From a phage: a stretch of 45,917 nucleotides of DNA. Location of the stretch: assembly GCA_014750165.1 (NCBI GenBank), contig GCA_014750165.1_4319.1; one strand, written 5' to 3'. The notes beneath the pieces are model-generated. The model searched no databases. It was given only the letters and a program-made list of their open reading frames with translations, and had not been told where the DNA came from. The position numbers and the translations under genes are program-made. This document shows positions 2,902-41,647 of this stretch, piece after piece; positions within the stretch are counted from its first letter, which is position 1; each line of letters opens with the position of its first letter.

Positions 2902-3221
2902 AACGAGCGGTGTATCTACAGTACCAGTCAGAGCCAACAGATGCCGAACTGGAAGCTATTGGGATGCGCCGCTCCGATTACGAAGATGAAGAGCCTGAAG
3001 TTTTACACTTCGACGAAAACATGATGAAGGCGTGGGACATTTACTGTTCAATGGCTACGCAATGGCGAGTCGGAGCTAACGGAGCTACAGGCCTAGATTA
3101 CAACGTGCTAAATTTCCTCTTTAGAGTGTATAATGTTTCTGAAGAAGAATTGGTACTCAGCGATTTACGCATCCTTGAAGCTAAGGCTCTTGAGATGATG
3201 GATAACCTGAGAAAAAAATAA
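2587..3221 (+). CDS. tail assembly chaperone G-T fusion (via -1 frameshift at 2892-2898)
   Basis: The downstream ORF 2910..3221 has no RBS of its own and lies in the -1 frame of the G-like ORF. This is the conserved lambda G/GT arrangement. Confidence 0.7.
2892..2898 (+). other. -1 programmed frameshift slippery site A_AAA_AAC
   Basis: Zero-frame codons are gtA AAA AAC TAA. A -1 slip reads AAA AAA CTA AAA CGA GCG GTG, which is in frame with ORF 2910..3221. Confidence 0.75.
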
Positions 3222-3242
3222 CCCGCTTCGGCGGGTTTTCTA
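3222..3242 (+). terminator. terminator-like hairpin
   Basis: CCCGC-TTCG-GCGGG followed by TTTTCTATT. Confidence 0.5.
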
Positions 3243-6625: not shown

Positions 6626-6648
6626 AGGCCCCATTAGGGGCTTTTTTA
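6626..6648 (+). terminator. terminator-like hairpin inside the tail operon
   Basis: GGCCCC-ATTA-GGGGCT followed by T6. Confidence 0.55.
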
Positions 6649-7482: not shown

Positions 7483-7968
7483 ATGAACTGGAATGAAATT
7501 TTCGAATACAGAGATGGCAAGATTTATTGGAAAGTTAGCCCTGGCAGGAGGGCTAAGGTTGGTTCGGAAGCTGGATCAAATCAAATAAAAGGGTATAGAT
7601 TTGTGAAATTTCACGGAGTTTTATATATGACACACAGGGTTATTTGGGAGATGCATAACTGTGAAATACCGCATGGAATGGAGGTTGACCATTTAAATCA
7701 CATTAGGGACGATAACAGGATAGAGAATTTAAGAGTTGTTACAAAGTCAATTAATCAGAGGAATGCATCTAAAAGAATTGATAATAAAAGCGGTTTTACA
7801 GGCGTTTCTTGGTATCCCAAATATTCAAAGTGGAATGCTTACGCGACAGTAAATTCCAAGAGGTTTAATCTTGGTTACTTTGAATCAAAGCAAGATGCCT
7901 ATGTGGCTGTTAAAAAATTTAGGTCCATAAATGATTTTCATAAAAACCATGGAGTTGATTTATGTTAA
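7483..7968 (+). CDS. HNH homing endonuclease with AP2-like DNA-binding domain (copy 1)
   Basis: ATG 7483 follows GGAG. Contains HRVIWE..EVDHLNHIRDDNRIENLR (HNH) followed by GVSWYPKYSKWNAY (AP2-like). Inserted between the tail genes L and K. Confidence 0.85.
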   Translation: MNWNEIFEYRDGKIYWKVSPGRRAKVGSEAGSNQIKGYRFVKFHGVLYMTHRVIWEMHNCEIPHGMEVDHLNHIRDDNRIENLRVVTKSINQRNASKRIDNKSGFTGVSWYPKYSKWNAYATVNSKRFNLGYFESKQDAYVAVKKFRSINDFHKNHGVDLC

Positions 7969-30178: not shown

Positions 30179-30664
30179 ATGAAGCAGAAGCTGCTACTTA
30201 GCGCAGTTACGGCTGCGGCAATATACATCGCAGCGCCGCTTATTGAACTCGTTGAGGGTGTGGAGAACAAGCCTTACATGGACATTGCCGGAATACCTAC
30301 AGTCTGCGCGGGTATCACTGGTCCTGACGTAGTTTGGGGTAAAACATACAGCAACAGGGAGTGCCGTAACCTGCTGGAGAAACACATTCAGATTCATGGG
30401 GAGCATGTTCAGGATGCGGTTACCTACCCAATTGCACCGCAGACAAGGGCGGCGTTAATCAGCTTTAGCTACAATGTTGGCGGTTCAGCGATGAGGAAGT
30501 CTACGGCTGTTAAGTTGATTAACCAGGGTAATATTGAGCAGGGTTGCAATGCCCTCGGTATGTGGAATAAAGCTACCATTAATGGTAAGAAGGTTGTCGT
30601 TAAGGGGTTAGTGAATCGCCGGAATGAGGAGATTAAGTTATGCTTAAGTGGATTGCAGCGTTAG
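30179..30664 (+). CDS. SAR endolysin (GH24 lysozyme)
   Basis: The N-terminal weakly hydrophobic LLLSAVTAAAIYIAAPLI is followed by E-x8-D-x5-T (EGVENKPYMDIAGIPT). Confidence 0.85.
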   Translation: MKQKLLLSAVTAAAIYIAAPLIELVEGVENKPYMDIAGIPTVCAGITGPDVVWGKTYSNRECRNLLEKHIQIHGEHVQDAVTYPIAPQTRAALISFSYNVGGSAMRKSTAVKLINQGNIEQGCNALGMWNKATINGKKVVVKGLVNRRNEEIKLCLSGLQR

Positions 30665-31029
30665 TGTTGTGTGTAGCTTTAACTGGATGCTCGGCAACAT
30701 CTGCGCTGACTGGTTTAATTGGCAGTAAGCCAGAGATTAGCGCTCAAGCTGGTGCAGAGAACAATAAGGTTGGTGTCGGGTTAACGAACAAGGTTGACTC
30801 CAGTAACTCCAGCGATGCTTCCGTTAAGGATTCTAGCGTAGGCTCTCTGGATAGCTCGAGCGGAAAAAAGACTGCTGACAATTCGATTAAGGCCTCAACA
30901 ATCACTGCCGAAAAGATTGAAATTACCAATAACGAATCATCAGCGCTTCCGTGGGTTGGAACAGGGGCTATGGGGTTGCTTGTTCTGATTCTCCTGGCCT
31001 TAATCTTAAGACGTAAAAAAGCCTCCTAA
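30640..31029 (+). CDS. unimolecular spanin (T1 gp11-like)
   Basis: N-terminal lipobox LTGC plus a C-terminal TM (AMGLLVLILLALIL) followed by RRKK. Confidence 0.8.
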   Translation: MLKWIAALVLCVALTGCSATSALTGLIGSKPEISAQAGAENNKVGVGLTNKVDSSNSSDASVKDSSVGSLDSSSGKKTADNSIKASTITAEKIEITNNESSALPWVGTGAMGLLVLILLALILRRKKAS

Positions 31030-31046
31030 TGGAGGCTATATTTTTA
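31014..31046. terminator. bidirectional intrinsic terminator
   Basis: A6-AGCCTCC-TAAT-GGAGGCT-ATATTTTT between convergent genes. Confidence 0.75.
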
Positions 31047-38389: not shown

Positions 38390-38463
38390 CAATCTGGTTT
38401 ATCGCAGGGATGATTACTTGGGCTTACTTTTTAATCGTTTAGATGGAGATTGTTAAAAAGAGC

Positions 38464-38492
38464 TTGCATTACTGACTGGAAACTTCTAATAT
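38464..38492 (+). promoter_or_regulatory. near-consensus sigma70 promoter
   Basis: TTGCAT (38464-38469), 17 nt, TAATAT (38487-38492). Confidence 0.65.
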
Positions 38493-38499
38493 TAACCAC

Positions 38500-38658
38500 G
38501 TAGGCAAACGAGCCATCCAAGATGGAACGGCGCACGGAGCGCAACTACTAAGTCCGTTGCTCATTAAGTAGCGCATGCGGCATTAAGACCTAGCGCAAAT
38601 ATGCAGATTAACCGGCTGTATCAGGCAGCCCCGGAGCCGTAACCGGGACTCATTCAAA
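38500..38658 (+). ncRNA. candidate structured leader / small RNA upstream of the tRNA
   Basis: No ORF longer than about 13 codons. Hairpins CCATC-caa-GATGG, GCGC-acgga-GCGC, GCAAC..GTTGC, GGCTG..CAGCC and CCCGG..CCGGG. Direct repeat CATTAAG(N0-3)TAGCGCA occurs twice. Confidence 0.35.
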
Positions 38659-38736
38659 GCTCTGCTAGCTCAATTGGATAGCAGCAACGACCTTCTAAGT
38701 CGTAGGTTACTGGTTCGAGGCCAGTGCAGAGCGCCA
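38659..38736 (+). tRNA. tRNA-Arg (anticodon UCU), CCA encoded
   Basis: Acceptor GCTCTGC/GCAGAGC, anticodon stem ACGAC/GTCGT with loop CTTCTAA, T arm ACTGG-TTCGAGG-CCAGT, discriminator G followed by CCA. Confidence 0.9.
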
Positions 38737-38751
38737 ATAAGGGAGTTCATT

Positions 38752-38934
38752 ATGTGGGATGTGAAGTTGTCCATTCGCTTAATGGGCCGCTCATGCAAGA
38801 GTTGCAGTCAAGATTACATCGCGTCAGTTGCCGCAATCAGCGCTGAGGATGCGGTAGCGAAAGTAAAGGAGATGTCGGGCGCTGACCCTGACACTCACAA
38901 ATTCCTGGTAGCTTACGTTCGTGAGCGAAAGTAA
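38752..38934 (+). CDS. hypothetical protein
   Basis: ATG 38752 lies 7 nt after AAGGGAG. The track start 38674 lies inside the tRNA. Confidence 0.55.
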   Translation: MWDVKLSIRLMGRSCKSCSQDYIASVAAISAEDAVAKVKEMSGADPDTHKFLVAYVRERK

Positions 38935-38978: not shown

Positions 38979-39003
38979 ATCCCTCTCTTGAGGGATTTTT
39001 TTC
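38979..39003 (+). terminator. intrinsic terminator
   Basis: ATCCCTC-TCTT-GAGGGAT followed by T7. Confidence 0.75.
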
Positions 39004-39013
39004 GCCTGTAATA

Positions 39014-39022
39014 TGGTATAAT
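39014..39022 (+). promoter_or_regulatory. extended -10 promoter upstream of the terminase genes
   Basis: TGgTATAAT (TATAAT at 39017-39022). No good -35. Confidence 0.5.
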
Positions 39023-39046
39023 CTGACCTCAACAAAGGGGGATTAA

Positions 39047-41624: not shown

Positions 41625-41647
41625 AGCCCCTACATGGGGCTTTTTTA
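41625..41647 (+). terminator. intrinsic terminator
   Basis: AGCCCC-TACAT-GGGGCT followed by T6. Confidence 0.75.

Follow-up and report, generated by a model that had tools for sequence, protein, structure and literature searches.

Nucleotides 38499–38658 of a 45,917-nt stretch of phage DNA (GCA_014750165.1, contig GCA_014750165.1_4319.1; hereafter the window) almost certainly specify a strongly conserved structured RNA, judging by comparative sequence analysis, and this RNA belongs to a family absent from Rfam 15 and from the literature we searched. An initial annotation of the window had proposed that a promoter here drives an ORF-free, structured RNA ahead of a tRNA; that core claim is supported, through covariation rather than through the quality of the promoter or the number of stems.

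A conserved module ahead of a tRNA

BLAST places the window among the Rtp-like coliphages (Drexlerviridae, Braunvirinae), and 87–89 phage records match the region of the interval at 73–95% identity. GenBank records of these relatives leave the RNA interval blank or fill it with ORFs that are plainly spurious. Rfam 15 (4,227 models) gave no match in 38443–38658 at E ≤ 10, nine diverse family members gave no Rfam match on the RNA at E ≤ 1, and literature searches returned no account of the RNA. The locus is laid out as follows.

38450–38463, + strand: A-rich conserved block TTGTTAAAAAGAGC, the left edge of the conserved module, adjoining the 5′ side of the −35 hexamer; conservation sets in here in 19 relatives
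38464–38492, + strand: sigma-70-type promoter TTGCAT-17-TAATAT; hexamers present, 7/12 matches to consensus, promoter kept in place in relatives
38499–38658, + strand: structured RNA of ~160 nt, with a 5′ end predicted from the promoter and a 3′ end at the RNase P site of the tRNA; covariation in 19 Braunvirinae
38659–38736, + strand: tRNA-Arg(UCU) on the same transcript, its CCA encoded in the DNA (found by ARAGORN and by Rfam at 52.9 bits)
38752–38934, + strand: 60-aa ORF of phrog_2919, homolog of T1 ST56, last gene of the RNA–tRNA unit
38979–38996, + strand: intrinsic terminator closing the unit, 7-bp stem followed by T7
39014–39022, + strand: perfect extended −10 TGGTATAAT of the terminase operon

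The tRNA, listed by ARAGORN and Rfam as tRNA-Arg(TCT), is the only one found and starts at 38659, as first annotated. RNase P cleavage at the 5′ end of tRNAs is established biology; the enzyme must therefore cut between 38658 and 38659, which puts the 3′ end of the RNA at 38658. The phrog_2919 family also lies 3′ of the RNA in T1 and in metagenomic relatives; its 47–60-aa proteins have no informative domain and no similarity to known toxins. In SU57 and ETEP102 a promoter is annotated at the place equivalent to the extended −10 of the terminase operon.

Covariation reveals a folded RNA on the + strand

We compared 19 Braunvirinae, in which the genes upstream of the RNA are mosaic while conservation begins exactly at TTGTTAAAAAGAGC-TTGCAT and continues through to the tRNA. 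RNAalifold predicted 34 pairs in these genomes, 10 of them changed on both sides; 98.1% of cells are paired, and 50 cells carry both-side changes. None of 500 shuffles matched the observed covariation, and slid controls gave 0–3 both-side pairs. Five helices are supported, four of them by compensatory changes across these close relatives. About 50 U.G cells on the + strand would become C.A mismatches if read on the − strand, and the RNA must therefore lie on the + strand, like the promoter and the tRNA. Its parts in the window are given below.

38499–38512, + strand: single-stranded conserved 5′ end CGUAGGCAAACGAG, family consensus CGU-R-R-AC-A-N-A-M-GAG, kept across all subfamilies
38513–38525, + strand: P1 hairpin CCAUC-CAA-GAUGG; 12 or more distinct complementary helices among family members, 5/5 pairs changed on both sides
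38526–38529, + strand: linker AACG, invariant in the aligned 5′ domains (alignments A3 and A4)
38530–38542, + strand: P2 hairpin GCGC-ACGGA-GCGC, invariant in Braunvirinae; the family loop always contains CG(A/G)
38552–38581, + strand: P3 hairpin (G.CCGUUGCU / AGCG..GCGGC) with loop CAUUAAGU; Braunvirinae only, 100% paired
38582–38614, + strand: variable, dispensable middle segment holding the second direct-repeat copy
38615–38629, + strand: P4 hairpin GCUGU-AUCAG-GCAGC; 3/5 pairs changed on both sides (CU/AG to UC/GA)
38630–38647, + strand: last hairpin P5, CCCGG-AGCCGUAA-CCGGG, with the CCGUAA common to the family; 2/5 pairs changed on both sides in Braunvirinae
38648–38658, + strand: single-stranded tail ACUCAUUCAAA, with AUUC(A/U)A conserved

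Compensatory substitutions are seen in several helices. Within Braunvirinae P1 passes through the series CCAUC/GAUGG, GCCAC/GUGGC, CUAGC/GCUAG and ACCAC/GUGGU, and P5 changes from CCCGG/CCGGG to GCUGG/CCAGC; P3 shows G-C to A-U and U.G to C-G or U-A changes, and P4 includes a replacement of GCUG/CAGC by GUCG/CGAC. ES lacks the middle segment, TR2 has other sequence in its place, and in Rtp, JeanPiccard, OzMSK, ACG-M12 and JulesPiccard it is 20–130 nt longer. Downstream, P5 runs into ACUCAUUCAAA with no U run, so that the window version does not end as a terminator-ended small RNA would. Two further pairings were considered and rejected: a pseudoknot between the linker ACGG(C) and the CCGU of the P5 loop shows no covariation (the loop varies in TR2, ES and ACG-M12 while the linker is invariant), and pairing of the 5′ end with the 3′ tail is not conserved.

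Several particulars of the initial annotation can be judged against these data. It had called the interval hairpin-dense, but folding energy is ordinary (MFE −45.6 kcal/mol, z = −0.63 on the + strand; z = −0.30 on the − strand), and significance comes solely from the comparison with relatives. Among the stems it had listed, CCATC/GATGG, GGCTG/CAGCC and CCCGG/CCGGG are real helices with compensatory changes, and GCGC/GCGC is a real helix that is invariant in close relatives and covaries across the wider family. The fifth, GCAAC/GTTGC, falls away, with no compensatory support and a score no better than shuffles; its bases belong to P3 (38552–38581). The direct repeat is present as described (CATTAAG at 38562 and 38581, TAGCGCA at 38569 and 38591) and lies in a segment that relatives can do without, being missing in ES and replaced in TR2. 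The longest + strand ORF of the interval has 13 codons, in agreement with the earlier limit of about 13. The interval had also been called GC-richer than its surroundings, which holds for the upstream side (0.51–0.54 vs ~0.43, a modest rise) but not for the downstream sequence, which is similar.

A promoter held in place by relatives

The two hexamers of the proposed promoter, TTGCAT at 38464–38469 and TAATAT at 38487–38492, and their 17-nt spacer are confirmed in the sequence. The promoter had been described as near-consensus and the best in the window, but it matches consensus at only 3/6 plus 4/6 positions, that is 7/12. When we counted site/spacer combinations across the window, 1,058 reached 8–10 of 12; the promoter scan tool omits TTGCAT-17-TAATAT, and a perfect extended −10, TGGTATAAT, stands at 39014–39022. 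The promoter is credible because relatives hold one at the same spot with different and better hexamers: TTGACA-17-TACATT in ES, TTGACA-17-TATCTT in ETEP102, TTGACG-17-TAGTAT in Rogue1, TTGACC-18-TAGTAT in T1 and TTGACG-17-TACATT in NBD2. Despite these differing hexamers the −35 starts 34–36 nt 5′ of the conserved CGU in ~60 members, and the promoter spacer contains a conserved motif, CTGAYYGG. Transcription is predicted from the promoter to start at the conserved CGUAG or within 1–2 bases of it.

An RNA family across Drexlerviridae

The family as a whole comprises ~60 distinct RNA sequences from at least five lineages, a non-redundant set drawn from loci anchored on the terminase small subunit together with reference loci. 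Members share one layout: promoter, 5′-CGUARAC..GAG, P1, AACG, P2, a variable insert of roughly 0–200 nt (an estimate from RNA lengths), a last hairpin whose loop has CCGUAA in its 3′ part, and the tail. All of these elements are present in the window at 38464–38658. In the family the RNA lies upstream of phrog_2919 and the terminase small subunit, a synteny confirmed for the window, and it sits where the early gene block meets the late one.

A covariance model of the 5′ domain built from non-Braunvirinae sequences only (R2) has 38499–38545 as its only significant match in the window (23.4 bits, E ~9e-5), finds one copy in T1 and recovers 59 members in 70 loci. In the R2 alignment, which was fitted to the model so that the percentage paired is inflated and helix diversity is not, 10 of 11 pairs are changed on both sides (139 cells vs 44.6 in shuffles, and at most 27 in slid controls). 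P2 is a hairpin of 4–6 bp throughout, with at least 11 different helices, 5/6 pairs changed on both sides and loops ACGGA, GCGGA, GCGAUA or CGAU. Forms of the last stem across the family include GCCGC/GCGGC, GCGGG/CCCGC, GUGGG/CCCAC, GCCGG/CCGGC and CCGC/GCGG.

What follows the RNA differs by lineage: tRNA-Arg, tRNA-Ser, tRNA-Trp, six tRNAs (in one metagenomic relative) or an ORF directly. Rogunavirinae (Rogue1, Sd1 and others) have the same start context TTAACCACGTAGAC, last hairpin and tail, with a different core, and their RNA is followed by tRNA-Arg(CCT), in Sd1 by Trp plus Arg. The NBD2 copy precedes tRNA-Ser(GCT); the "tRNA-Ser" overlap that BLAST reports in NBD2-like records is this kind of neighbouring, genuine tRNA. 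The ETEP102 version is 113 nt long. In T1 the copy lies at 7623–7743 behind TTGACC-18-TAGTAT, has no tRNA and leads straight into the SD and ATG of ST57; the conserved AUUC(A/U)A of the tail is kept even there, as ACAAUUCAAG followed by SD and ATG. Because the family precedes different tRNAs or none, the link to tRNAs must be secondary. In a further subgroup (L296, L305, L307, L318, L325–L328 and L227/L315) the last stem is extended to 8–9 GC-rich bp and followed by U4–U8, forming a terminator that carries the CCGUAAGAC motif in its loop; directly 3′ of it, ORFs resembling ST57 or ST56 begin with their SD and ATG. Since this terminator abuts the SD and ATG, no promoter lies between it and the conserved ORFs.

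Searches outside the family were negative. No chromosomal homolog of the RNA was found in E. coli, and no second copy, by analogy with putL/putR or nutL/nutR, was found in the window or in T1. Exact matches to the 15-mer ACGGCGCACGGAGCG among viral and genome contigs were nearly all chance occurrences in GC-rich DNA, and only known Braunvirinae genomes among them passed the covariance model.

A candidate cis-acting leader

By analogy with put and nut, our tentatively preferred reading is that the RNA is a cis-acting leader that modifies the polymerase transcribing it; the initial annotation had named a regulatory leader for the late (terminase) genes among its suggestions. The host-type promoter at 38464–38492 would start a transcript near 38499, the RNA would fold from P1 to P5, and the transcript would run on into tRNA-Arg(UCU), the 60-aa ORF and the terminator at 38979–38996. 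The invariant nucleotides (5′ CGUARAC..GAG, AACG, CG(A/G) of the P2 loop and CCGUAA), held in place by covarying helices, would bind the polymerase that made the RNA, either directly, as in HK022 put, or through a phage or Nus-type protein, as in lambda nut. The polymerase thus modified would resist termination. Here we infer all three of the stability of the released RNA, its contact with polymerase and its effect on termination.

Several observations suggest this reading, beginning with the covariation itself and with the 34–36-nt spacing between the −35 and the conserved CGU. The covarying hairpins P1 and P2 come directly after the start site and are joined by an invariant linker. In the terminator subgroup, the last stem of the RNA is itself a terminator set against conserved ORFs, which calls for read-through. 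The late block, moreover, is studded with terminators: strong + strand terminators at 41625, 9, 3220 and 6626 leave no gap before the SD and ATG of the late gene that follows, and the T1 record annotates 11 + strand terminators at 8.3–29.6 kb, in the late block. As late terminators placed in this way leave no promoter room before the next gene, polymerase must read through many of them, and we know of no antiterminator described for T1-like phages. The leader of the terminase promoter, at only ~25 nt, has no room for another such element. That operon does have its own perfect extended −10 after the terminator of the RNA–tRNA unit, so the late genes need not depend on the RNA promoter.

Other points speak against a leader. 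The last hairpin of the window lacks a U run and is not a terminator, so the window itself gives no sign of attenuation. The RNA has neither homology to put nor a boxA, and put and nut in turn have nothing like its conserved 3′ hairpin motif or its long dispensable inserts. Early and late timing would also be blurred if antiterminated polymerase came from a sigma-70 promoter that is not regulated.

A broader version of the leader reading, which we hold to be possible but somewhat less secure, is that the whole T1-like family uses processive antitermination, evolved independently of HK022 put, with the RNA as its loading signal. If so, the leader, alone or with a small phage protein, would make E. 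coli RNA polymerase ignore some ten late intrinsic terminators; this would constitute a second RNA-based antitermination system and explain late-gene expression in T1-like phages.

Alternative readings

The strongest competitor, to which we give perhaps a one-in-several chance, is a stable trans-acting small RNA of 160 nt, freed by RNase P here and by an intrinsic terminator in some relatives; release through RNase P/E processing had been suggested in the initial annotation. Such an RNA could possibly bind a host or phage protein, or pair with mRNAs through its single-stranded 5′ end, and serve as a sponge, a decoy or an anti-defence factor. The layout is gene-like, with an own promoter, a structured RNA of 90–160 nt and a defined 3′ end, and the conserved single-stranded 5′ end resembles a seed. 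The 3′ end is a terminator with U4–U8 in L296, L305, L307, L318 and L325–L328, and the 5′ end of a tRNA in Braunvirinae, Rogunavirinae and NBD2. That Arg-UCU, Arg-CCU, Trp plus Arg, Ser-GCU or a six-tRNA array stands at the exact 3′ boundary, depending on lineage, suggests a self-contained module, and the T4 stable RNAs species 1 and 2, co-transcribed with tRNAs, offer a precedent. However, T1-type members have neither terminator nor tRNA, and their RNA enters the SD and ATG of ST57. The window version lacks a U tail and other features of Hfq-dependent sRNAs, no target was identified, and the dense covariation with invariant loop and junction bases fits a ligand- or protein-binding fold better.

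Two specific trans roles were considered and dropped. For a CsrA sponge, the GGA in the P2 loop of the window is not kept across the family (GCGAUA or CGAU), and three GGA triplets in 160 nt are about the chance expectation. For an anti-CRISPR RNA or CRISPR-repeat mimic, P4 resembles the hairpin of a type I-F repeat, but its loop is unconserved in relatives.

We consider it unlikely that the RNA is a riboswitch-like or protein-dependent attenuator in which the last stem gates the tRNA and small ORFs. The pattern is indeed aptamer-like, in that stems covary, nucleotides in junctions and loops are invariant and extra hairpins are inserted in some members, and one subgroup has a terminator directly 5′ of its first ORF. 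The window and nine diverse members, however, matched no known aptamer, and the examined Braunvirinae, T1, Rogunavirinae and L313/L316-type members have no expression platform. In the terminator subgroup CCGUAAGAC sits inside the terminator loop, so the terminator stem belongs to the conserved fold and does not compete with it. A candidate antiterminator pairing was seen in L307 only, and not in L318 or L305, both of which were compared.

Less probable again is a passive leader that protects the 5′ end or aids processing of tRNA or mRNA, with no regulatory or trans role. The RNA does form the 5′ end of the transcript and a tRNA comes next in many members, but a protective hairpin needs neither invariant AACG, CG(A/G) and CCGUAA nor three universal helices. 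The extreme 5′ end is moreover single-stranded, and the RNA is kept where the tRNA is absent.

There is very little room for a DNA-level element such as pac or a replication origin, or for a small coding sequence on one strand or the other. The interval does contain few ORFs and lies near the terminase genes, and − strand ORFs of 35–37 codons overlap it. The compensatory changes, though, include many U.G pairs that are valid only as + strand RNA; across members no ORF is conserved on the + or the − strand, and indel lengths do not keep to multiples of three. As for pac, the 2.8-kb terminal repeat of T1 is annotated at 1–2800, ~7.6 kb from the T1 copy of the RNA. If packaging starts at the repeat, as we suppose, pac lies that far away, and the RNA interval is probably not pac.

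A decayed second tRNA or tRNA-like remnant, one of the origins first suggested for this RNA, is the least credible of all: the interval adjoins a tRNA, spans about two tRNA lengths and has several 5-bp stems, but ARAGORN finds nothing down to ps80 on the + strand (at ps70 it makes a junk call with a 2-nt anticodon), the Rfam tRNA model (RF00005) has no match at E ≤ 10, purifying and compensatory selection acts on the helices and loops, which is not what decay would leave, and the same RNA occurs in T1, which has no tRNA there.

Significance

T1 is a classic coliphage, and few phages turn up more often in isolations on enterobacteria than Drexlerviridae do. To our knowledge the control of transcription in Drexlerviridae is essentially undescribed and Rfam holds no non-coding RNA from them. 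The conserved RNA with its promoter offers a concrete and easily mutated handle on transcription control in T1-like phages. Should the RNA modify RNA polymerase, it would add a new example to the few known of antitermination by RNA; should it act in trans, lytic phages would share a widespread small RNA. Either way, it merits annotation in Drexlerviridae records.

Comparison with known systems

Type III toxin–antitoxin loci (toxI-terminator-toxN) share with the terminator-type relatives the order of promoter, non-coding RNA, leaky terminator and small protein gene. Unlike them, the RNA described here is not a tandem repeat array, a tRNA may intervene, and phrog_2919 has no similarity to toxins.

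The T4 species 1 and 2 RNAs (rnaC/rnaD), P4 CI and P1 C4 are RNAs of ~80–140 nt with tRNA-like processing and release by RNase P, and the present RNA is likewise a small phage RNA co-transcribed or processed with a tRNA. It differs from P4 CI and P1 C4 in having no Rfam C4 match. It differs from the T4 RNAs in that the Drexlerviridae family is not tied to tRNAs (T1 has none); the T4 RNAs, moreover, lie within a tRNA cluster and not at the 5′ end of a transcript.

Lambda nut and PR′-qut-tR′ are short promoter-proximal leaders, as the RNA is by position; the RNA also ends at a terminator in some members and heads a terminator-studded late block. The PR′-qut-tR′ late leader of lambda is the 194-nt 6S transcript, and Q binds within the promoter spacer; the conserved CTGAYYGG in the spacer of the RNA family recalls such a Q site. 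In lambda boxB, a short hairpin with a GNRA-like pentaloop is bound by the arginine-rich N protein, and the small P2 hairpin with its conserved loop could bind a protein in a similar way. Unlike nut, however, the Drexlerviridae RNA has no boxA: the best match to GCUCUUUAACAA / CGCUCUUA in the RNA, at 38558, has 3/13 mismatches, a level reached 27 times in the window vs 21 by chance. We know of no N or Q homolog in T1-like phages, and of no conserved multi-helix fold in the lambda leader.

HK022 put needs no protein factors to suppress termination in cis, but it does need the zinc-binding domain of the RNA polymerase beta′ subunit. R2 has no significant match in the HK022 genome, where its top score (8.1 bits, E 0.68) falls outside PL and PR, and the RNA also differs from put in having one copy per genome rather than two, an extra conserved 3′ hairpin with CCGUAA, and variable inserts. 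In layout put is nonetheless the closest known system: both are phage-encoded, stand at the head of a transcript that a host-type promoter drives, contain two stem-loops joined by a short linker and lie upstream of genes separated by terminators. P1 and P2 would occupy +15 to +44 of the predicted transcript, an architecture found in ~60 members, and the resemblance is one of layout only. The putL element is ~70 nt long, consists of two stem-loops just downstream of PL, and acts independently of a tether through the nascent transcript (PMC9378689). Because put can act untethered, a cut at the downstream tRNA would not matter to a leader working in the same way.

A motif shared by promoters of the RNA family

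Throughout the Drexlerviridae leader RNA family, to which the structured RNA at 38499-38658 (+) belongs, the spacer of the promoter keeps the motif CTGAYYGG:

38473-38480, window, promoter spacer
7600-7607, T1 (relative locus L277), promoter spacer
also ETEP102 (L232) and the relative loci L278, L314 and L316, promoter spacers

The motif usually adjoins the -10 hexamer and thus provides an extended -10 with its TG; in the Braunvirinae, the window's own Rtp-like subfamily, it is placed 7 nt further upstream than this usual position. It could also be a binding site for a regulator.

The transcript start of the family recurs at a second T1 promoter:

30319-30380, T1 (L277), promoter TTGACT-17-TATAAT of the recE-like exonuclease gene

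Transcripts from this promoter would begin with CGTAAACGAAGGAG, which matches the start of the family's RNAs and here acts as leader and Shine-Dalgarno (SD) sequence of the exonuclease gene. The purine-rich 5' end of the RNA family (..AAGAG) itself resembles an SD.

Extra segments and database records among relatives

Several relatives carry additional segments around the tRNA:

1101-1169, JulesPiccard (L233), partial tandem duplicate of the RNA 3' domain (hairpins P4 and P5, and tail), placed after the complete RNA and before the tRNA
~1095-1217, EC3a (L015), extra ~100-nt segment directly 3' of tRNA-Arg
1095-1196, PCEc3 (L019), the same
1597-1656, ETEP102 (L232), at the corresponding place

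The post-tRNA-Arg segment is labelled as a 102-nt "tRNA-Ile" in the PCEc3 record, and ETEP102 gives a sub-threshold tRNA-like match there (26 bits); these segments could represent tRNAs that are degenerate or unusual.

Among the phage records searched, none had at least 99% identity to the queried region. Escherichia phage 2725-N35 (MN840485.1) is about 91-92% identical over this region, on the opposite strand. MG065688.1, titled "Campylobacter phage A110b" (host C. jejuni), shows ~90% identity to the window's coliphage region, and several further "Campylobacter phage" records match tRNAs of rV5-like coliphages; probably these labels are wrong or the isolates were contaminated.

Terminators and promoters of the late genes

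Further transcription signals were found downstream of the tRNA, at the boundary between gene blocks and within the late block:

within 38979-39046, strong terminator ATCCCTC-TCTT-GAGGGAT followed by T7, upstream of the terminase small-subunit gene (39047)
39014-39022, perfect extended -10 promoter TGGTATAAT, directly 3' of that terminator and before the same gene
31020-31037, terminator AGCCTCC-TAAT-GGAGGCT, bidirectional because each strand has a T run, where gene blocks switch direction
41625-41641, 9-26, 3220-3237 and 6626-6643, + strand, four strong intrinsic terminators, GC-rich and followed by T runs

Judged on its -10 element, the predicted promoter at 39014-39022, which has no recognisable -35 hexamer, is better than TTGCAT-17-TAATAT ahead of the structured RNA. 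Each of the four late-block terminators lies 5-15 nt upstream of the following late gene's SD and ATG, which leaves no space for a promoter, so expression of the late genes requires polymerase to read through terminators. In T1, 11 + strand terminators are annotated over the late block.
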